Positions 1-29,699 of a DNA stretch of 39,783 bases are shown piece after piece. Below the pieces are notes generated by a model. It saw nothing but the letters and a program-made list of their open reading frames with translations. It was not told where the DNA came from and made no database searches. Positions within the stretch are counted from its first letter, which is position 1, and every line of letters starts with the position of its first letter. The position numbers and the translations under genes were made by a program. This DNA comes from a virus (lineage: Duplodnaviria; Heunggongvirae; Uroviricota; Caudoviricetes). The stretch lies in IMG/VR virus record IMGVR_UViG_2706794673_000014. The stretch is one strand, 5' to 3'.

Positions 1-459
1 TTATTCAGTCGGCAGTGCTACGCGCCAGGGGAGCAGTTCGCCGACCCGGTTTATCGGCCAGTCGGCTATGACGTCAAGGACATAGCGGAGGTAGCTTTCT
101 GGCTCCACTCCGTTCAGTTTGCACGTCCCGATCAGGCTGTACAGCAGCGCTCCCCGCTCTCCTCCATGATCCGAACCGAAGAACAGGTAGTTTTTGCGGC
201 CCAGACTGACCATCCGCAACGCATTTTCAGCGATGTTATTGTCCGCCTCAGCCCAGCCATCATCTGCATAGTACGTCAGCGCCGGCCACTGGTTCAGGGC
301 ATATGCGAACGCTTTCGCCAGTTCTGAGTGTCGCGACAGGGTTTTCATCTTTTCACGCAGCCAGCTTTCCAGGGATTTCAGCAGCGGTTTCGTTTTCAAC
401 TGACGTTCGGCAAGGCGCTGTTTCAGCAGGAAGATGTCGTCAGAAGAGATGTCGTTCAT
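1..459 (-). pseudogene. tnpC: IS66-family transposase (TnpC/Orf3) C-terminal fragment, roughly the last 150 aa; 5' two-thirds absent
   Basis: Translation ends ...NIAENALR...GRKNYLFFGSDHGGERGALLYSLIGTCKLNGVEPESYLRYVLDVIADWP, as recalled for IS66 TnpC C-termini; stop at 1-3; in-frame stop upstream at 520-522. Confidence 0.8.
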
Positions 460-545
460 AAGCCCGTATTTTACCGGGCTTATTCTGTGACAACCAGGAT
501 AAAGAGATTTACAGCATGGTCAGGGAGGTCAGCAGCCGCTTAGGC

Positions 546-640
546 TGTCTATAGCGCGGCGATTTTTTTGATACCGATTTGCATTTCATTTGATACCGCT
601 GAAAAACGCCGATACGCAACTTATTTGATACTAAATCGGC
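546..640. repeat. Right-end (attR-like) terminal repeat region: three closely spaced TTTGATAC(C/T) motifs at 567-575, 589-597, 624-632
   Basis: Motif read directly; inverted copies at the other end (39253-39261, 39158-39166, 39106-39114); tight spacing matches Mu attR R1-R3. Confidence 0.7.
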
Positions 641-677
641 GCTTTTCTTTTGAGTTTTAGAATGAGTTTTTAAGCGT

Positions 678-1415
678 TCATTCACTCTCTTTCAAACCAG
701 TTTTAACTGTTTGTGGTTTTGGGTAAGGCTGGACTTTGAATAGCTTTGTGTTAAGGCGTTTTCTGGCTCTCTTGTCCAGAAACCGGATGTAACGAAACTG
801 ACGGAATTTATGAACACTGGCTCTGTCGATATTAGCCCGCAGATGTTCACCTCGCTGTCCTCCTCGTTTGATTGCATTCTTGCAAATCTCGTGATACCAC
901 TCGCCATCAAGTTCATAGAATGTTGTTTCATGACTGCCTACATAATCAAAATTGCTTGCCTGGTACACGACACCAAGACAGCCACAACGCTCATCTGCAA
1001 ACGACTGAACCCACTGCACCTGCGGATAAAGTTGTCTGATTAGTTTGAGCGCGTAACTGATTGCCCTTGATTCGGAGTTTCTCGGCATACAGTCATGCAG
1101 CCATAACCGGTTAAGCTCCATATATTCGCGGTTCTGCGTGCCAGTTACGACGCGTGCACCATTGTTTGGATTAAGGGCATAACCCCATTGCATTACGCCA
1201 ACCAGCTCCCGTTCTGAAAATATGCCCAGATGAAGGTAGGAATTATTTACGAAACGATGGCTGTAATGTTTATTGACGACGACCAGCCGGGCCAGCCAGC
1301 AACTTATTGTCTCAACCCGTAACTCACGGGAGCCATAACCGACGATATTGTCGTTATAGTGAATAAGTTCAGGCGTGCTGATGATACGGGATGTAACTTG
1401 CTTTCTGTTCCCCAC
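678..1415 (-). CDS. mom: Mom-like DNA modification protein; start uncertain (GTG at 1415 with AAGGA 9 nt upstream proposed; the ORF track extends to 1610)
   Basis: Terminal gene next to attR-like end, overlapped by com 3' end, GATC cluster upstream, ~245 aa; identity inferred from context, not sequence recall. Confidence 0.55.
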
Positions 1416-1569
1416 GACAGGATTTCCTTGTGTATGTGGGGTGCTCTGTGGCGCTCTGAGATGTGATTTGATTGAGGGTTTTACAGCGCGGACATTTAAC
1501 TTCCAGATAACTGAAGCTGGCTCGTGCCAGTAGCTTGTTACAATGTCGGCACCGTATGTTTCGATACAT
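1369..1569 (-). CDS. com: Com zinc-finger translational activator of mom
   Basis: [14 protein letters not shown]...EVKCPRCK...EHPT matches recalled Mu Com (IRCKNCNKLL...EIRCPRCK...EHPT); ATG at 1567-1569 preceded by AGGAGG; stop overlaps proposed mom start region. Confidence 0.8.
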
Positions 1570-1616
1570 GGCCGCATAACCTCCTGCTTTGTTGTTGATA
1601 TCTTTATCACTCAATC

Positions 1617-1702
1617 GATCGACAAAAACGATCGATTTGATTTATTTAATTGATACAACAAATAACACGAAATGTCATTAGCGAAAATTTATGAGTTTGA
1701 TC
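1617..1702. promoter_or_regulatory. GATC cluster (1617-1620, 1630-1633, 1699-1702) and 8-bp inverted repeat ATCGATCG/CGATCGAT upstream of com-mom
   Basis: Read directly; Mu mom promoter is known to be controlled through Dam methylation of three upstream GATC sites (OxyR binding). Confidence 0.45.
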
Positions 1703-1825
1703 ACTAATTTTAAACGGTGCTGTAACGCATAAGTGCTGAATGATTGTACATTTGAATACCGCAAAGCAAACAAATCAACTAATTTATAGAAGTCAATTGG
1801 TTAATTGCCAGCGTAAGAGGCTGCT

Positions 1826-2119
1826 ATGGACAATCATGTAACGACGAGAAATCGAAAAATGATTGAAAATGCGGAAATCTATAATGATTATTTTTCCGAT
1901 TATTCAGATGCCTGCAAATACAGTTCGAGTGCGGGAGAGTTCATATGCTTCAACTTTTTTATTAAATCTTATGTTTTTCCTCCACAGCAAGAAGATGGAG
2001 GTGTGCCACCTCCTGAAATCACTTTGCACCGTATAGCCTCCGTCTCAATGATGGAGCAACAGGCTAATGAGCTGTATAGCATTCTGGGAACGATTCTACA
2101 AAAGCGTGAATCGGACTAA
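1826..2119 (+). CDS. Hypothetical protein, 97 aa, AT-rich, divergent from com-mom
   Basis: ATG at 1826 with AAGAGG 5 nt upstream; local GC far below the phage average; no recognisable motif. Confidence 0.5.
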   Translation: MDNHVTTRNRKMIENAEIYNDYFSDYSDACKYSSSAGEFICFNFFIKSYVFPPQQEDGGVPPPEITLHRIASVSMMEQQANELYSILGTILQKRESD

Positions 2120-2286
2120 TGATACCGGTTCATTTGCCTGCCCGGATGGGGAAGCAGGATTGACTGCTCCATAAGCAGCTATATTTCTGAATACGAAATA
2201 CTATCCAGCGATTACATATGGCTGGATAGCGGCAAAGATGTTTTCATTAGTGTCAAACCGGCAGAGGACACCACCGGTTTGTATTG

Positions 2287-2541
2287 TTACATCATGGTAC
2301 TGTCAGTTCCGGGCTGAGCCGGGTCTGGTTGCTCTGGCTGCGCGTCGGTTTTCGGCTCATTATCAGCATCACTGGCCGCAACTGCTGGCCCAATAAGTTT
2401 TGCCAGCACTTCATCAACGTAAGTGTCGATTTGTGCCTCAAAATCCTTGCGGACCTGCGCTTTCAGCAACTTATTTACTTCACCGGAATACAGTGCCTGT
2501 TTTACCAGGTCTTCAGTGACGGTGCCTTTAATTTCTGGCAT
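2287..2541 (-). CDS. Hypothetical acidic protein, 84 aa
   Basis: ATG at 2539-2541 with AAGGAGG 6 nt upstream; Asp/Glu/Pro-rich C-terminus. Confidence 0.6.
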   Translation of the reverse strand: MPEIKGTVTEDLVKQALYSGEVNKLLKAQVRKDFEAQIDTYVDEVLAKLIGPAVAASDADNEPKTDAQPEQPDPAQPGTDSTMM

Positions 2542-2576
2542 GTATATCCTCCTTATGCGGGAATAAAGCCCTGCAA

Positions 2577-2759
2577 TCAGGGCTGGGTCGGGTCTTTTGG
2601 GAGCGGAGTTACCTGCGCTGTTTTACTGAGTTTTTCAGCTGCTGCGTCCTCAATTTTGCGGCGAACATAATTTCTGATGGCCTTATAACCACCACTCACC
2701 AGATATAACGCACATACTGCCGTGCAGAAATACAATAAAATAAGCTGTAAAAATGTCAT
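2577..2759 (-). CDS. Small membrane protein, 60 aa, one predicted transmembrane helix
   Basis: ATG at 2757-2759 with GGGAGG upstream; hydrophobic N-terminus FLQLILLYFCTAVCALYLV followed by a basic stretch. Confidence 0.6.
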   Translation of the reverse strand: MTFLQLILLYFCTAVCALYLVSGGYKAIRNYVRRKIEDAAAEKLSKTAQVTPLPKDPTQP

Positions 2760-2855
2760 TATCCCTCCCAATTATTGACATGGTGTTGACACCGGTAATA
2801 TCTGTTAGGTAAAAAGGTGCACTGCATTTTTTGCTTTGGATATAACGATCTTTTT

Positions 2856-2897
2856 GCCGCCGGTTTCTTGTTTTCCCTTACCGGCGGCATTTTTTTA
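2856..2897 (+). terminator. GC-rich hairpin (GCCGCCGGT ... ACCGGCGGC) followed by T-run ATTTTTTTA; intrinsic-terminator-like on the plus strand
   Basis: 9-bp perfect stem, 15-nt loop, T-run 2889-2897; on the minus strand the hairpin is followed by A, so it is plus-strand specific. Confidence 0.45.
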
Positions 2898-2903
2898 TCC
2901 TGC

Positions 2904-4958
2904 TTACGCGTTATTCACTTCCACCACGATACTGTCAATCAGTACCGGGTAAGTCGCATTTTTAGTGATATCGGTCACGCGCAACTTGTCTGCCGTAAAC
3001 GTGCCGACCGGAGACTGCGACAGCATGAATGGTGTCCCGTCCTTACCATCAATGACCGGCGTCACCTCAATACTGTTGTTACCGGCAAAACGGAAGCCCA
3101 GCGTATGCCATTCGTTATTAAATGCGCCGAATGACCCCAGCTTCGTGTTCTGCGCCGTGTTTCCTTTGTGATACATCACGTTAAGGTCTGTGGCATCGCT
3201 CTGTACGTAGAACGATGCCAGCAGGTTATGACCGGCATTTCCTTCCAGAGTAACCCCTTGCGGCAGGGCAGAAACCGGCCAGTACAGCGCCAGTGCGTAC
3301 TGATTAGCCGTAAGCGCGCCATCGAGTTTAAAACGACAACTGACAAGACCACCTTTACCCAGCAGGTCCGCACCATTACCAGCATCATGCTCAAGGTACC
3401 AGGGGGCTCTTCCTGTTTCCTTGGTCAGTTTCATTGCCTTACCCCCGCTGGCTCCGGCATCATCCACGATTTGAGCCTTGCCACCTCCGGCAGCCCAACC
3501 CTGTGGTGTCAACCGTCCTTCAGACTCAGATGCCCGGTAAGCAAATAGCGTACTCATCGTCGTGGTGTCTGCGGGTGGCGTGGACGGTTTTGATGGTGTA
3601 TCAGGTGACGGCTTCTCATCCGGTGGTGTCACGGTCTGCCCACGCATCAGTTCAGCCGTGCGCCCTGCATGGAGCATAATAGCTGAGGCCAGACGGTCTG
3701 AAATGACGCCCCTGCGTGCCCATGAGCTGAAATGGCTGTCACGCTGTGTCGAAACAAAACTGCCCTGGGTTCGGGATGCTGCACCGTAATACCCGACAGC
3801 CACAATATCCGGGTCTTCCGCCGGAGCATTCGTTGGCGTGCTCTGTCCATTCTCATCCGTCAGGAACGGTACAAAGAAAATTTTCTGTGCTTCCTTGCCT
3901 TTGTAGCCACCGTATACTGCCTCATATTTATCGGTGCCAGCGTTTTTCCAGTAATACGTGGTATCACCGCAAATCCACGGCACCGTGGTGGCATTTCCAC
4001 TCACGCACTGCGCAGCAAGCGGAGCCAGGTCAGTTCTGAACTGCTGAACCATGGCCGTGAATAAACTATTATGCTGCTGGCTTCCTGAGGCAAGGTCTGC
4101 CTCTCCCTGCATCCAGACCACAGCCAGAAGTTTGTTTTTCGGGTTTTTCGCCAGCGCGACTTTGGTGCGGCTTACCAGGTCCTGATACAGAGGTTTACCG
4201 GCCCCCCAGCGTGAAGAATCAGCGGAAGCACCGCTGGCCTCACTGAATGAGCCGTCGGCTCCAGTGGTGAATGCTGACCCGCCACGACAACAGGGCACCA
4301 GAAGTATCCCGGCATTCTGTGGGATATAGGGAAGCAGTTTTTTGGCAATATGCAACCCCTGACCGACAGTCCCGTACTGGCCTTTTGCCAGATCAGCTTT
4401 CGGGTGGTTTATCCCGCTCATATCCTGAACATCATGCAGGCAGTGGTCTGCCGGAATGATGTCGTTGTATGTACACGACGTACCGTTGGGCGTTACCGTA
4501 CTGCGGCGTGCCAGTTGCTTAATGCGTGGGTCCGGGCGGTCAAACGAATCCGGTAACGGCAGCCCCTCGCCGTAGGCCATGCCATTTGACTGACCCGCGA
4601 GAATGACAACAAAGTAATATTCCGGCTCTGAACTGCTGCCATTCGTGCTACCGGAAGGCCCGGCGTTATCCGGTGCATTCCAGTCGGAGGGCGTGAGCGT
4701 TCCGGCCACGTCAGATGTGATTGGAATGATGCCAGTCACGCCTGAACTGGTGATTTCTGCACTGGGATTACCGGATACCGGCATTACCCATAATGGCTCT
4801 TTCGTGCTGAAGCGGATCACGCAGTCTGCGAAGGTGATCCCCCCTTTATTACCCGAAGGGCGGAAAGGGCTTTCAATAAATGCCACCGTGCCACCGGCAA
4901 CCTTGACTGAAAACTCTCCGGGCATGGCGGAGAGCATTTTCCACTTGGAGTCTGACAT
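2904..4958 (-). CDS. SGNH-hydrolase sialate O-acetylesterase-like protein (NanS/NanS-p-like), 684 aa, with Pro/Thr linker and C-terminal putative carbohydrate-binding domain
   Basis: Motif YYFVVILAGQSNGMAYGEGLPLPD and downstream blocks (NDIIPADHCLHDVQDMSG, LLVPCCRGGSAFT, HFSSWARRG) match recalled E. coli NanS (YjhS); linker TPPDEKPSPDTPSKPSTPP. Confidence 0.75.
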   Translation of the reverse strand: MSDSKWKMLSAMPGEFSVKVAGGTVAFIESPFRPSGNKGGITFADCVIRFSTKEPLWVMPVSGNPSAEITSSGVTGIIPITSDVAGTLTPSDWNAPDNAGPSGSTNGSSSEPEYYFVVILAGQSNGMAYGEGLPLPDSFDRPDPRIKQLARRSTVTPNGTSCTYNDIIPADHCLHDVQDMSGINHPKADLAKGQYGTVGQGLHIAKKLLPYIPQNAGILLVPCCRGGSAFTTGADGSFSEASGASADSSRWGAGKPLYQDLVSRTKVALAKNPKNKLLAVVWMQGEADLASGSQQHNSLFTAMVQQFRTDLAPLAAQCVSGNATTVPWICGDTTYYWKNAGTDKYEAVYGGYKGKEAQKIFFVPFLTDENGQSTPTNAPAEDPDIVAVGYYGAASRTQGSFVSTQRDSHFSSWARRGVISDRLASAIMLHAGRTAELMRGQTVTPPDEKPSPDTPSKPSTPPADTTTMSTLFAYRASESEGRLTPQGWAAGGGKAQIVDDAGASGGKAMKLTKETGRAPWYLEHDAGNGADLLGKGGLVSCRFKLDGALTANQYALALYWPVSALPQGVTLEGNAGHNLLASFYVQSDATDLNVMYHKGNTAQNTKLGSFGAFNNEWHTLGFRFAGNNSIEVTPVIDGKDGTPFMLSQSPVGTFTADKLRVTDITKNATYPVLIDSIVVEVNNA

Positions 4959-5030
4959 CGTCTTTTCTGCCTGTTTCTGAATTAAACAGAGTCAGAATAG
5001 CGACCGCTGAAAAATATGTGTTTTGCGGAA

Positions 5031-5063
5031 ATTCAAAAAAGCGTCACGGTACTTTTGGTGACG
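5031..5063 (-). terminator. Putative intrinsic terminator just after gin (6-bp GC-rich stem, then TTTTTT on the minus strand)
   Basis: Stem CGTCAC/GTGACG at 5042-5047 and 5058-5063 overlapping gin stop; plus-strand A-run 5035-5040. Confidence 0.45.
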
Positions 5064-5616
5064 GAGCTGGTGAGGCAGGAAAATAACGATAAAGGGTGGA
5101 AAGGCCAATATCAAATATCAGTGCGATTTGTTTACGGGACTCGCCATTAGCCAGCAAACGGGCGATTTGCTCCCGCTCTTTCTCTGTCAGTTTCTGAGGT
5201 CTGCCGCCATGACGCCCCTGAGCACGGGCAGCAGCAAGACCCGCGCGTGTACGTTCAATAATGAGTTCCCGCTCCATTTCCGCCAGCGCGCCCATTATAT
5301 GGAAAAAGAAACGTCCCATGGGAGTGGATGTATCAATATTGTCCGTAATGCTGCGGAAGTTAACGCCGCGTTGCCGGAGTTCTTCTGTTAAAAGGACAAG
5401 GTGCTGCATACTGCGTCCAAGGCGATCCAGTTTCCAGACCAGCAGGGTATCCCCTGGCCGGAGTCGCTTTAATGCGCGTTTAAGTCCGGGACGCTCCCTT
5501 GTCTTACCGCTTATTCTGTCTTCGAAAAACAGCTCACATCCTGCACATTCCAGCGCATTTCTTTGTAGCGCCGTATTCTGGTCATTTGTTGACACCCTGA
5601 TATACCCAATCAGCAT
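5044..5616 (-). CDS. gin: Gin/Hin/Pin-family serine DNA invertase
   Basis: MLIGYIRVSTNDQ...LLVWKLDRLGRSMQHL...GRFFFHIMGALAEMERELIIERT closely matches recalled Mu Gin; sits beside the invertible segment. Confidence 0.93.
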   Translation of the reverse strand: MLIGYIRVSTNDQNTALQRNALECAGCELFFEDRISGKTRERPGLKRALKRLRPGDTLLVWKLDRLGRSMQHLVLLTEELRQRGVNFRSITDNIDTSTPMGRFFFHIMGALAEMERELIIERTRAGLAAARAQGRHGGRPQKLTEKEREQIARLLANGESRKQIALIFDIGLSTLYRYFPASPAPSPKVP

Positions 5617-24698: not shown

Positions 24699-26365
24699 TA
24701 CCAGCCCCCCCGATCAAATTCATGATATGCCTCATCGTCATCACGATAACCGCCCTCCATTGCCCGCGACCGCTCCTGTAGCGCCTGACAGGCTGATTCA
24801 TCCAGGATGAAGCCCTCCATGTATGACGCCCGGTTTGCCATACAGAGCGCCACGGCAAAATCACCATGGCGGCGGGCGTTCGCAGCCGTTGCGTTCTGGT
24901 CCTTCGTGCGCCCCTTGTCGATTTGCGGGATACCATTCACTACCTTCACATGGCGCAAATCATCAAGCGTGGTCTGATGGCGGGCGACGAGGATATTCTG
25001 ATCTTCAAACTCGGCTTTCAGTTTTGGCATCCACTCGCCGTACCACTTCGGCGACAACATCACGCAGTCGATGATGTCCGGGCCAAAGGCCAGCAGTGCG
25101 GCCTCTGCCAGATAGCCGCCGTTACCGGTGGCGTCGAACGCCGCACCGACCAGCGCCGGAACGCGGGTCAGGATGTACATCATCACCTGTTCCTGCTGGG
25201 CATACGGCAGGTTGCGCAGCTCCACGCGAAACACCTCGCGCTTTGCCAGGGATTCGGTGATTTCCAGCAGCACAAAGCAGGACAGGTCACCGGTGCGGGC
25301 AAAGTCTTCCCCGAAGCTGAAGCGGGAACGGGGATTTAATTTCTCTAAAAGCGGTTTTAAATGTTCTTCACACCAGGTTAAAACTTCCGATTCACGCAGC
25401 CATGCGGCACGGCTGATGAAGTTGTCCGGGGCTTCAAACGTCAGAATCGGGATGTCGCGGATCATCGCCATTTCAATAAGCGCGTGGGGGATATAGGCAC
25501 CGCCGGATTTTTTCGGGATACAGCCGTATTCCTCGTCGGCATCCTCACGGGTCGGGGCGTTTTTGTAGAGATCATCACGCCATTTCTGCTCGCTTTCCGG
25601 TGACCATTCCTGATCGGTGACGTAACAGATACGACGGTACAGCCCGTCCGCAATGGCATCATCCAGGGTTATGCGGTGGACGCTGTAATCCTTGCGCCCC
25701 TCGCGGGCTTCCTGAATGTACTGATTAAACAGATTATCGACGCCGTTATGCGTGGAGATAATACGCACGCGCGCGCCCCACATAGTGAGCGCCATTGCCG
25801 CCTTGAGAAGCTCATCCAGTGACTCGTGGAACGCGGCTTCATCAATCACCACATCCCCCTGAAGGCCGCGCAGGTTTGACGGACGGGAAGACAATGCCTG
25901 AATTTTGAATCCACTGTTCGGAAAGCGGATCATGTAGGTCAAAATTTCTTCTTTTTTATCCCGATCCCAGAATGTCTGCTCATACACATCAGCATCTGCC
26001 AGCTGGTTAAAGGCACGGGAGAACAGCGCGCAGGCAGAAATATATTCCAGCGCCATCTCCTGCTTTGATCCCACATAAAACACATTGCGGCCACCACGAC
26101 GCTTCGGTTTTGCAGCAGTAATGACGTTACGCCCGGCTTCCGCCCAGGTAAGACCGGTGCGGCGGGATTTCTCCGCGATGCAGACCTGACTTTCATCTGC
26201 AAACCAGCGGGCCTGATAATCCAGAAACACCGGCATATCACCGGGCAAATCAAGGCTGTCCGGCACATCCACGCCCAGCAGGGCTTTTTCACCTGACAGA
26301 TCAATTTTGCGGGGAGGCGTCATTTGCATCAGTGAAGGCGACGTTTCTCTGGCTTTGTTCATCAT
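24698..26365 (-). CDS. Terminase large subunit (Mu gp28-like)
   Basis: 555-aa ORF; position and size. Confidence 0.88.
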   Translation of the reverse strand: MMNKARETSPSLMQMTPPRKIDLSGEKALLGVDVPDSLDLPGDMPVFLDYQARWFADESQVCIAEKSRRTGLTWAEAGRNVITAAKPKRRGGRNVFYVGSKQEMALEYISACALFSRAFNQLADADVYEQTFWDRDKKEEILTYMIRFPNSGFKIQALSSRPSNLRGLQGDVVIDEAAFHESLDELLKAAMALTMWGARVRIISTHNGVDNLFNQYIQEAREGRKDYSVHRITLDDAIADGLYRRICYVTDQEWSPESEQKWRDDLYKNAPTREDADEEYGCIPKKSGGAYIPHALIEMAMIRDIPILTFEAPDNFISRAAWLRESEVLTWCEEHLKPLLEKLNPRSRFSFGEDFARTGDLSCFVLLEITESLAKREVFRVELRNLPYAQQEQVMMYILTRVPALVGAAFDATGNGGYLAEAALLAFGPDIIDCVMLSPKWYGEWMPKLKAEFEDQNILVARHQTTLDDLRHVKVVNGIPQIDKGRTKDQNATAANARRHGDFAVALCMANRASYMEGFILDESACQALQERSRAMEGGYRDDDEAYHEFDRGGW

Positions 26366-28389: not shown

Positions 28390-28720
28390 TCGTGGCCGCC
28401 TTGCTGATTTGTGAAATGAGTTGCAGGGTGCGTTGCTGGTTTGCCAGCACCAGACGGGCTTCGTCCCGTTCACGCACAAGCACATGATTATTGTCCTCAA
28501 GGCGCTGCGTCTTCTGGTGCATTCCCCATACCACGGCAGCCAGCACGCTCATCACCCCCAGCGCCGCCATACAGCCTCCGGCAATCAGGGCCGGTAAGGG
28601 ATTGTTCACCGCAGACACAGCACACCCCGCAGCAGCACAACGGCACACAGCAGCGCAATCATGAGCGGTCGCCAGAAGCGGTTCAGACTTTCGGCAAATC
28701 GTAACGACATAACCATTCAT
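28220..28720 (-). CDS. Putative i-spanin (transmembrane helix plus periplasmic coiled coil); start uncertain
   Basis: Hydrophobic LIAGGCMAALGVMSVLAAVVW followed by charged coiled-coil region; directly downstream of endolysin. Confidence 0.5.
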   Translation of the reverse strand: MNGYVVTICRKSEPLLATAHDCAAVCRCAAAGCAVSAVNNPLPALIAGGCMAALGVMSVLAAVVWGMHQKTQRLEDNNHVLVRERDEARLVLANQQRTLQLISQISKAATNEKQQNMQHSEEQQSIVRRSLATVPAAAVPVPDDVADRVRRAVCEIRAGEAGADPR

Positions 28721-29183
28721 CCGCCGAACGGCGGGCCTCAAGACCGGGGAGTTTTACCCCCTTTGAATAAATCCAGCGGATATACTGCTTACAGGACGCG
28801 GGCATCTGCCCGGCATTGATAAGGCGCAGGAGCGTGGAGTTGCGAAAGTTCGTTTCACCGGCCCAGAAAATCCAGGAGGCCAGCGCCACCGTCTGACCAC
28901 GGGTAAGCGGCACCTGAACATGACGATCGATAGCCGCAAAGGCCCATTTCATGTCCTTTTCCAGCAGCTCCAGACACTCTTCATCAGTTTTTGTCATCCC
29001 CGGTTTCACATCCGGGCCGGTATGGCCGTAACAGATGGTGGGGGTGCCGGTGGGATCAATGTACGTGGTGTTTTCTTTCCCTTCCCAGTAGCCGGTGTAG
29101 TGCGTGGCAATGGTGAACGTCCCGGCTCCGGCCAGAACAAGGGCAATCAGCTTTTTACGCAGGGGTGCGGGGAGTTTTGGCAT
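28683..29183 (-). CDS. SAR endolysin (T4-lysozyme-like muramidase with N-terminal signal-arrest-release domain)
   Basis: N-terminal weakly hydrophobic LIALVLAGAGTFTIA; catalytic E-D-T region YWEGKENTTYIDPTGTPTICYGHTG. Confidence 0.85.
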   Translation of the reverse strand: MPKLPAPLRKKLIALVLAGAGTFTIATHYTGYWEGKENTTYIDPTGTPTICYGHTGPDVKPGMTKTDEECLELLEKDMKWAFAAIDRHVQVPLTRGQTVALASWIFWAGETNFRNSTLLRLINAGQMPASCKQYIRWIYSKGVKLPGLEARRSADEWLCRYDLPKV

Positions 29184-29195
29184 TGTTACGCTGTC

Positions 29196-29699
29196 TCATG
29201 GTGTTCTCTGAGTCAGCGTAACCGTGAGGAAAAGGGGGCAGGATTTGCGGAATATCANNNNNNNNNNNNNNNNNNNNNNNNNNNNNNNNNNNNNNNNNNN
29301 NNNNNNNNNNNNNNNNNNNNNNNNNNNNNNNNNNNNNNNNNNNNNNNNNNNNNNNNNNNNNNNNNNNNNNNNNNNNNNNNNNNNNNNNNNNNNNNNNNNN
29401 NNNNNNNNNNNNNNNNNNNNNNNNNNNNNNNNNNNNNNNNNNNNNNNNNNNNNNNNNNNNNNNNNNNNNNNNNNNNNNNNNNNNNNNNNNNNNNNNNNNN
29501 NNNNNNNNNNNNNNNNNNNNNCCGCCTGAGCAGGTTCAATCCCCTGACGGTGCAGTTCAGCACTGATCACATCAACCAGGTCCCGCAGCGTGCCGGGCCA
29601 GTTCTTTTTCAGCTCATCATCAGGAATATCATCCAGACGGTCAATCAGCGCGTGCAGCTGTTCGCTGTCACCAAACATGCTCATCTGTGTTTCAGCCAT
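29196..29699 (-). CDS. Mor/C-family transcription activator; only the N-terminal ~59 aa (29521-29699) are readable, the rest lies in N-run 29258-29520
   Basis: N-terminus MAETQMSMFGDSEQLHALIDRLDDIPDDELKKNWPGTLRDLVDVISAELHRQGIEPAQA resembles recalled Mu Mor; position between gemA and lys. Confidence 0.6.
   Translation of the reverse strand: MAETQMSMFGDSEQLHALIDRLDDIPDDELKKNWPGTLRDLVDVISAELHRQGIEPAQAXXXXXXXXXXXXXXXXXXXXXXXXXXXXXXXXXXXXXXXXXXXXXXXXXXXXXXXXXXXXXXXXXXXXXXXXXXXXXXXXXXXXXXXXXIFRKSCPLFLTVTLTQRTP
29258..29520. other. Run of N (unsequenced or masked)
   Basis: Read directly. Confidence 1.

Follow-up and report, generated by a model that had tools for sequence, protein, structure and literature searches.

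What do two small genes do that follow a large esterase gene near the end of a Mu-like prophage? The locus lies in a stretch of tailed-phage DNA (Caudoviricetes; IMG/VR record IMGVR_UViG_2706794673_000014) that we analyzed at its full length of 39,783 nucleotides and refer to as the window. A first-pass annotation of this DNA had described, between positions 2287 and 2759, two co-oriented small open reading frames (ORFs), separated by 35 bp and located downstream of the esterase gene. This description was correct in every detail, as were the statements that the genes sit in prophage cargo and that no sequence evidence points to a specific role. What it missed is the membership of the products in the families DUF1378 and DUF826, the linkage of both to the esterase in Shiga toxin (Stx)/lambdoid phages and in Mu-like ones, and an antisense small RNA (sRNA) gene. 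The locus is a portable cassette that consists of a NanS-p-type esterase gene, a predicted antisense PasC-like sRNA gene, the DUF1378 gene, the DUF826 gene, and a hairpin. This cassette has moved as a unit from Shiga-toxin-type phages into the Mu-like prophage.

The first small gene (2577-2759, minus strand) was taken from the ORF list and characterized by Pfam, PHROGs, hydropathy, an AlphaFold model, and the ratio of nonsynonymous to synonymous substitution rates (dN/dS). The ORF runs from an ATG, 2759 to 2577, and encodes 60 amino acids (aa), MTFLQLILLYFCTAVCALYLVSGGYKAIRNYVRRKIEDAAAEKLSKTAQVTPLPKDPTQP. A Shine-Dalgarno sequence, GGGAGGG, was read at 2763-2769 (minus strand), with 3 nt between it and the ATG. 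No homologue starts at the TTG that stands four codons upstream of this ATG; every one begins with MTF. The protein is identical to RefSeq WP_000143468.1 and belongs to Pfam DUF1378 (PF07125; 109.4 bits against a cut-off of 25, E 9.4e-32; residues 1-58 on model positions 1-58 of 59) and to PHROG 494, where its function is unassigned. Hydropathy is 1.9-2.3 over residues 1-24 (Kyte-Doolittle, 19-residue window), and the isoelectric point (pI) is 9.3. Five basic residues stand after the hydrophobic stretch, so by the positive-inside rule DUF1378 is predicted to be a single-pass protein with its N-terminus out and its C-terminus in. In the AlphaFold model a single unbroken helix extends over residues 3-50 and is followed by a disordered tail. 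We therefore predict one N-terminal transmembrane (TM) helix with about two residues outside, and a basic amphipathic helix and tail in the cytoplasm. The earlier reading as a 60-aa single-pass membrane protein preceded by a GGGAGG site is thereby upheld by hydropathy, the modelled helix, and the Pfam match.

The family core LYFC..LYL.SGGY is present in the window protein (alignments A2 and A4), and the TM segment contains 12 invariant residues (F3, L9, Y10, F11, T13, V15, L18, Y19, L20, G23, G24, and Y25). This conservation exceeds the needs of a simple anchor. Among 30 distinct DUF1378 alleles the median pairwise dN/dS is 0.21, and it is 0.12 in the TM part. Among the Mu-like alleles, which have no adjacent holin gene, the values are 0.14-0.30; the exception is 0.74 between the window and locus L004, a pair of low divergence with four synonymous differences.

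The second small gene (2287-2541, minus strand) encodes 84 aa and was characterized from the ORF list by Pfam, PHROGs, AlphaFold, and dN/dS. Its Shine-Dalgarno sequence, AAGGAGG, was read at 2548-2554 (minus strand); the two co-oriented genes thus each have their own ribosome-binding site. The product, identical to RefSeq WP_001114100.1, matches Pfam DUF826 (PF05696; 58.7 bits against a cut-off of 25, E 6.4e-16) over residues 1-57, i.e., over the helical N-domain, and belongs to PHROG 311, in which no function is assigned either. As the first-pass annotation had said of a protein with an AAGGAGG site, it is strongly acidic (pI 4.24; 16 acidic and 8 basic residues). The AlphaFold model has a short helix at residues 10-17 and a long one at 20-50 with a predicted local distance difference test score (pLDDT) above 90, and a disordered tail below 50. 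The layout is a helical N-domain of about 51 aa, then the acidic tail, with MM as the final residues. The protein is predicted from the model to be soluble and acidic, with one long helix and a disordered acidic tail that carries a hydrophobic C-terminal tip.

Eight residues of DUF826 are invariant (S19, R31, E35, D39, V42, D43, L46, and G51). The relatives keep the helical N-domain, and their acidic proline-rich tail ranges in length from a few residues to about 100. With few exceptions, the Escherichia alleles have two or three hydrophobic residues at their end, for which the codons differ; the ends seen behind the hypervariable acidic tail are TMM, MMM, MML, TML, TLL, and ILP (alignment A1; P0249, P0252, P0253, and P0255). 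This C-terminus could be a degron or a docking tip. The median pairwise dN/dS of DUF826 is 0.30 (33 distinct alleles), with 0.09-0.17 among the Mu-like alleles. The family is small: an exhaustive profile search of 1.84 billion proteins gave 53 representative clusters. Its remotest relatives are short, lack the long tail, and stand alone directly 3' of Rz/Rz1 in other lambdoid prophages.

Structure prediction, one of the checks suggested by the first-pass annotation, thus supplied the helices and the TM layout and brought no fold or PDB relative. When the DUF826 model was compared with the PDB by Foldseek, nothing matched at E <= 10; since this model is little more than one long helix, the fold search is uninformative. 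PDB sequences searched with the profiles of both families yielded chance hits only (E >= 0.29).

Conservation across homologous loci was another of these checks, and it proved to be strong; homology to known virion or lysis proteins was not found. The 701-bp stretch with both small genes is 100% identical in 14 complete Escherichia coli genomes, and relatives with at least 80% nucleotide identity are present in 350 of 5426 genomes; a megablast search against phage records gave no match. About 115 loci from IMG/VR, NCBI, and Logan were annotated with both family profiles and reference proteins. In every one of them that reaches far enough, the order is esterase, DUF1378, DUF826 on one strand. 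The trio has two types of flanks: either gin on one side and com/mom on the other (Mu-like), or S and R downstream (lambdoid). It is located between stx and pinholin S in VT2-Sakai, 933W, and phi24B, and the same order was found in 309 phage records matched by tblastn, most of them from Stx phages. The trio is accompanied by two holin families (Phage_holin_2_1 and 2_3) and also occurs in Mu-like prophages; it was found in Citrobacter farmeri as well, and with a different holin family in Escherichia sp. The identity ranges are 50-100% for the esterase alleles, 51-100% for DUF1378, and 30-100% for DUF826. The esterase-DUF1378-DUF826 linkage is old and diversified.

The alleles of the window can be compared with those of Stx phages directly. 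Stx-phage DUF1378 (PF07125/PHROG 494; 933W, VT2-Sakai, and vb_24B_23 of phi24B; sometimes called "ORF B78") matches over the full length of the hidden Markov model (HMM) and has the same length, the same N-terminal TM helix, the same basic juxtamembrane segment, and the same place directly after the esterase. However, the window protein is only 51-58% identical to the Stx-phage alleles, and its carrier is Mu-like rather than lambdoid. Stx-phage DUF826 (PF05696/PHROG 311; located 5' of holin S, "ORF C81-like", sometimes mis-annotated as "head completion protein") has an HMM match over the helical N-domain and shares with the window protein the acidic variable tail, the hydrophobic C-terminal tip, and the place after DUF1378. 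Here the differences are an identity of 30-43% to the lambdoid alleles and the lack of a holin gene after window DUF826. A tblastn search with DUF826 at E 1e-3 found only Mu-like copies.

Both ORFs are real protein genes under purifying selection in both backbones. This bears on the simplest explanation, that they are decaying hitch-hikers, functionless ORFs that persist because the esterase gene lies on one side of them and the next recombination hot spot on the other. It would account for the prophages that carry the esterase and lack the pair, and for the mosaic break points found inside the cassette (e.g., in L022/L024 and L071). However, dN/dS is well below 1 for both genes in both backbones, the two frames are intact in all 88 loci that contain both genes in full, conservation extends to the ribosome-binding sites, and the invariant residues form clusters. 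The selection analysis largely refutes the hitch-hiker explanation, and we regard it as extremely unlikely.

One of the mosaic loci, L071 (IMGVR_UViG_2617270951_000022, 87-5139), has a Mu-like gin and an esterase 99% identical to the window type, followed by lambdoid-type DUF1378 and DUF826, S, and R. Either the two backbones have really recombined here, or the assembly is chimeric, with its joint in the conserved 3' part of the esterase gene. Two apparent fusions, P0201 (DUF1378 and DUF826) and P0239 (holin and DUF826), were considered as Rosetta-stone evidence and rejected, since the sequences are frameshift or chimeric artefacts.

The spacer between the esterase gene and the DUF1378 gene contains the fourth part of the cassette. 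Motif counts predict a sigma-70-type promoter on the plus strand (2786-2815), i.e., antisense to the small genes, with the -35 box TTGACA at 2786-2791, an 18-nt spacer, and the -10 element TAAAAA at 2810-2815. It is followed by a predicted sRNA of about 76 nt (2821-2896, plus strand) with terminator arms at 2856-2863 and 2881-2888 and a T-run at 2890-2896; this prediction is based on fold energy, the conserved terminator, and the PasC-like position. The promoter motif occurs once in the whole 39.8-kb window (0.02 expected). Among distinct esterase-DUF1378 spacers, 33 of 34 contain TTGAC(N)-17/18 nt-TAAAAA, compared with 0.9% of shuffled spacers, and in these 33 alleles the -35 box begins 18-29 nt from the DUF1378 start codon. 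A hairpin of -14 to -22 kcal/mol lies 73-110 nt past the promoter motif, with a T-run that abuts the esterase stop codon, and this terminator is conserved in all spacer classes. The predicted sRNA of the window folds at -23 kcal/mol (z -4.5). The sRNA bodies fall into at least six poorly alignable classes with a common terminator core and a short upstream motif. RNAalifold applied to their alignment gave five consensus pairs and negligible covariation energy, as the body classes are too divergent to align; thus the sRNA call rests on the promoter, the terminator, and the position. The same architecture was seen in the 933W-type phages VT2-Sakai (L002) and phi24B (L091).

No Rfam family reaches its gathering threshold in the window. 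A match to Esr41 (2816-2898, 22 bits, E 0.19) was rejected as homology: the cut-off is 102, Esr41 is encoded in island SpLE1 (PMC5286369), and the match only flagged a terminator-bearing element.

A closer counterpart is PasC. PasC and PasA are Hfq-dependent sRNAs of enteropathogenic E. coli (EPEC) E2348/69 validated by northern blot and by RNA interaction by ligation and sequencing (RIL-seq) (PMC8550237; bioRxiv 10.64898/2026.05.13.724894); they act in trans on many targets. Table S6 of PMC8550237 lists PasA between the esterase gene and the gene that follows, in the orientation "> < >". In the EPEC genome PasC, with a TTGACA box upstream, adjoins the stop codon of the esterase gene. PasC/PasA and the window element have in common the place right after the esterase stop on the opposite strand, the TTGACA -35 box, a size of about 80 nt, and a GC-rich terminator with related cores (GCCAGC, CCGCCAG, and CCGCCGG) and a U-run. 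However, neither PasA nor the PasC-like unit of prophage PP2 has a blastn-short match to the window, only the terminator core and the short upstream motif of PasC align with the window element in a multiple alignment, and the EPEC PasC/PasA loci do not have the DUF1378 and DUF826 genes. The window element is therefore predicted to be a positional and architectural counterpart of PasC, a putative sRNA gene and not a proven homologue.

Several other loci carry such units. In PP2 of E2348/69 (L121, NC_011601 743266-743712), two tandem units of about 150 bp, PasC-like and PasA, replace DUF1378 and DUF826, and each has an antisense terminator and a TTGACA box. The lambdoid loci L054, L043, L046, and L066 contain DUF1378, a shortened DUF826, and, between the latter and S, a copy of PasA; in L054 and L043 there is a PasC-like unit as well. 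These copies indicate a duplication of the esterase 3' end together with the sRNA region. On the other side of the gene, upstream of Stx-type esterases, Rfam detects the convergent sRNAs STnc100 and AsxR or AgvB (L002 2014-2273; L072 4177-4236), so that in such loci the esterase gene is flanked by sRNA genes on both sides.

An antisense RNA next to a small hydrophobic protein raises the possibility of a toxin-antitoxin system of type I, in which DUF1378 would be the toxin and the sRNA its RNA antidote. In tisB/istR-1 and zorO/orzO, the gene of a small hydrophobic protein has an oppositely transcribed sRNA upstream, and this layout resembles that of the spacer sRNA and DUF1378. The conservation of the sRNA gene, with its -35 box at a nearly fixed distance from the DUF1378 start in 33 of 34 spacer alleles, favors such a system, and so do the EPEC prophages that retain the sRNA and have lost the protein gene. 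However, the predicted sRNA is fully complementary to positions -62 to -137 of the read-through mRNA and leaves the ribosome-binding site and the coding region uncovered. In nine allele classes its predicted pairing with the DUF1378 and DUF826 initiation regions was no stronger than that of shuffled controls (z -1.8 to +1.2). Thus any effect of the sRNA on the small genes would be in cis, through complementarity and convergent transcription. In contrast to tisB/istR-1 and zorO/orzO, the window has no predicted pairing in the initiation region and no dedicated toxin promoter; the relatives of its sRNA, PasA and PasC, act in trans via Hfq on many targets; and there is a conserved gene for a soluble partner. 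The protein is also larger, as DUF1378, with 60 aa and a long soluble tail, is at the upper size limit of type I toxins. We consider a type I system very unlikely here.

How the small genes are expressed follows in part from the same spacer, which the sRNA gene fills and in which no consensus sense promoter was found. The lambdoid cassette is located in the Q-dependent late operon; in lambdoid/Stx phages its slot is between stx, with the late promoter pR', and the holin gene, whereas the window cassette is not placed between Q/stx and holin-endolysin genes. The nanS-p esterase is induced 1-2.4 logs by mitomycin C (PMC10462455). The small genes are probably transcribed by read-through from the esterase gene, which in lambdoid phages would place their expression late in lytic growth. 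The probable 3' end of the cassette transcript consists of two stable hairpins right after the DUF826 stop codon (2281 to 2254 and 2230 to 2200; 2200-2281, minus strand; fold -32 kcal/mol, z -4.5). A stem-loop just past this stop was read in nearly all of 33 distinct downstream sequences, with a U-tract of varying quality; a strict terminator test was passed in 23 of 88 loci. From the stem-loop we conclude that the transferred unit stops just past DUF826, separate from the holin gene.

The late position matters for the suggestion of the first-pass annotation that such pairs in prophage cargo are often toxin/antitoxin, superinfection-exclusion, or defense modules. It found no support in PADLOC, Pfam, or NCBIfam, nor in the transcription pattern, with no promoter of the pair's own and a place in the late operon. 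If the pair were cargo that protects the lysogen from superinfection, DUF1378 would be expressed from the prophage and would obstruct a component of the host inner membrane that incoming phage DNA makes use of. Superinfection exclusion typically involves small proteins of the inner membrane (HK97 gp15 and T4 Imm), the cassette has a cargo-slot position in both backbones, and a solitary DUF1378 stands between tail-fibre and methylase genes in a Cedecea prophage. Against this, there is no recognizable sense promoter, the position is in a late operon with a mitomycin-induced gene upstream, DUF1378 has virtually no periplasmic residues, and no PADLOC match was significant: the single one, between DUF826 and PbeC (E 0.0076, 12.9 bits), is at chance level. 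We find superinfection exclusion distinctly unlikely.

A toxin/antidote or holin/antiholin-like pair has the same low standing. Here DUF1378 would damage or depolarize the inner membrane, and DUF826 would restrain it until it is degraded via its hydrophobic tip. This fits the small size and single pass of DUF1378, whose TM segment is unusually conserved (dN/dS 0.12), the small acidic partner next to it, whose disordered tail ends in a conserved hydrophobic C-terminus, and, in lambdoid loci, the adjacent holin genes. However, Pfam and NCBIfam detect no toxin, antitoxin, or holin domain in either protein, PADLOC gave no match in support, and PHROGs offers no informative function for either. Features of type II toxin-antitoxin systems were not found, as there is no such domain, no autoregulatory DNA-binding domain, no own promoter, and a 35-bp gap without translational coupling. 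Nor does the pair look like a holin/antiholin system, with no holin Pfam match and adjacency to S only in the lambdoid relatives. Moreover, either family is also found alone.

The virion can be addressed through the homologous phage phi24B. A proteome of its virions, searched with six-frame ORFs down to 35 aa, lists the esterase gp84 and no ORF at 25386-25878, the site of both small genes. From this relative we infer that the pair does not encode virion parts. The esterase gp84 decorates the capsid and undergoes processing after release, and this leads to another explanation, in which the pair is an esterase helper that holds the NanS-p-type esterase at the membrane, delays its autoprocessing, or aids its loading onto virions. 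It would account for the pair staying with the esterase, as the trio is invariant in the roughly 115 loci and two unrelated backbones, and for the transplantation of the whole cassette into Mu-like prophages; the post-release processing of the decorating phi24B esterase is also in keeping with it. On the other hand, the esterase persists without the pair in the EPEC prophages PP2 and PP5, distant DUF826 and DUF1378 relatives occur without any esterase, and the pair is absent from phi24B virions. A membrane anchor would also be odd in a chaperone of a cytoplasmic capsid decoration, and recombinant NanS-p is reportedly active by itself (Nuebling 2014, Saile 2016). A helper role seems unlikely to us, if somewhat less so than exclusion or a toxin/antidote pair.

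The explanation that we tentatively put first, as possible rather than probable, is that the pair is a non-essential accessory acting at the energized inner membrane or at the lysis step of phages with signal-arrest-release (SAR) endolysins, in the lytic phase and outside the virion. Four observations favor a job at the lysis stage. Late non-virion phage proteins of the inner membrane are mostly related to lysis; in every lambdoid locus the pair stands immediately 5' of S-R; remote DUF826 genes are found immediately 3' of Rz/Rz1; and both backbones use SAR endolysins, which depend on membrane energization for their release. The R endolysin in the Stx loci is of the phage-21 type, which we take to be a SAR endolysin. 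The Mu-like lysozyme of the window (28683-29183, minus strand) begins with MPKLPAPLRKKLIALVLAGAGTFTIATHY, an N-terminus of SAR type. No holin is annotated near it, as in phage Mu.

The mechanism might be as follows. Read-through from the esterase gene would yield DUF1378 and DUF826 during late lytic growth in lambdoid phages, and the convergent sRNA gene would probably dampen or insulate this read-through while late transcription is off. DUF1378 would enter the inner membrane, and its basic juxtamembrane helix would dock the acidic helix of DUF826, giving a membrane-tethered complex at the cytoplasmic face. Such a complex could tune the moment when cells with esterase-bearing progeny open. A functional analogy is provided by the T4 antiholin pair RI/RIII, a small membrane-tethered protein and a small helical cytoplasmic one, both late and non-virion, that tune lysis time. 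There is no relation in sequence or fold, and the soluble part of RI is periplasmic, whereas that of DUF1378 is predicted to be cytoplasmic; besides, the Mu-like phage has no annotated holin.

A number of facts weigh against a job at the lysis step. The lysis genes are about 24 kb away in this Mu-like prophage, and the pair is linked to the esterase and not to any holin type. The contact between DUF1378 and DUF826 is read solely from charge and amphipathic complementarity. The EPEC E2348/69 prophages PP2 and PP5 have kept the esterase and the PasC/PasA units (PP2 also a holin gene), and both small genes are missing, which means that the pair is dispensable for the persistence of the esterase and lysis genes. 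In a Cedecea neteri prophage, DUF1378 alone occupies a cargo slot between a tail-fibre gene and a Dam-like methylase gene, so DUF1378 and DUF826 need not act as a pair; a scan of GTDB species representatives found this one Cedecea locus only. Across the whole families, neither of the two obligatorily accompanies the esterase or the other, although in Escherichia they are nearly always together. As for transcription, the -10 element of the sRNA promoter, TAAAAA, lacks the usual final T. The gin gene ends in a terminator (5020-5050, minus strand; a hairpin with T6, CGTCAC..GTGACG CTTTTTT), and the 85-bp gin-esterase spacer contains no consensus promoter. Finally, the literature searched contained no functional study of or experiment on either family; PMC10462455, the one paper there in which both families are named, lists them as unknown ORFs "between nanS-p and S".

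A bolder version of the release idea would make the cassette a portable release-timer for esterase-carrying particles. The PasC-like sRNA would gate read-through into a pore-forming or depolarizing DUF1378, which would be restrained by a labile DUF826 with a C-terminal hydrophobic degron; the result would be a three-layer RNA/protein switch in SAR-endolysin phages, both lambdoid and Mu-like. We consider this highly improbable. Overall, a function in toxin-antitoxin, in defense, or in the virion is unlikely.

The first gene of the cassette encodes a NanS-p-like sialate O-acetylesterase (2904-4958, minus strand; SASA and DUF6645 domains, 684 aa), identified by Pfam and by similarity to VT2-Sakai NanS-p, to which it is 66% identical. 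Its N-terminal part of about 109 aa (4630-4958, minus strand) matches only the esterases of Mu-like prophages, with 59% identity in LC727881 and LC727895. No DUF1737 domain was detected in it by Pfam; DUF1737 is the capsid-binding domain of the phi24B esterase (bioRxiv 10.64898/2026.04.10.717836). The virion-docking domain of the esterase may have been swapped for one that fits the Mu-type particle.

The cassette slot is the right end of a complete Mu-like prophage, between gin (5616 to 5044) and com/mom. The gene order is tail/baseplate genes, an invertible tail-fibre segment, gin, esterase, DUF1378, DUF826, an opposite-strand ORF at 1826-2119, com, and mom. The remaining prophage genes (repressor, transposase A/B, gam, mor, lysozyme, spanins, head, and tail) lie further along the window; about 24 kb separate the lysozyme gene from the pair, which has no endolysin gene in its vicinity. 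The ORF at 1826-2119 (plus strand, 97 aa) is convergent with DUF826, and no family of Pfam, PHROGs, NCBIfam, or PADLOC matches it. It was found in only part of the Mu-like loci and is thus outside the conserved cassette. Masked bases (N) at about 29290-29520 fall inside the mor-like gene region, where the ORF translations show long stretches of X. Positions 1-459 (minus strand) hold a C-terminal fragment of an IS66-family-like transposase that adjoins the prophage end. In strain JE86-ST05 the prophage is flanked by rhsC/ybfB, unlike in the window; the prophage is therefore at different chromosomal sites, as is expected of a Mu-like element.

The families themselves were already catalogued and are standard equipment of Stx-type phages. 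Here they are represented by divergent alleles on a Mu-like prophage, and to this extent the finding is largely ordinary. As far as the searchable literature goes, the new part is the four-part mobile cassette, which is under purifying selection in two backbones and has a conserved, predicted antisense sRNA gene. The pair follows nanS-p directly and precedes the lysis genes in those 309 phage records, which are mostly Shiga-toxin-converting. Its mobility as a unit with the esterase and the sRNA, its selection in Mu-like prophages without a holin, and its non-virion nature argue against a purely holin-coupled role, toxin-antitoxin, and defense. Should every assay show the pair to be inert, it would be no more than conserved phage cargo whose use is unknown. 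With the conserved antisense sRNA gene, the PasA/PasC class extends, at the level of prediction, to Stx phages and Mu-like prophages. If expressed, this gene would contribute one more prophage sRNA to the regulatory networks of enterohaemorrhagic and commensal E. coli.

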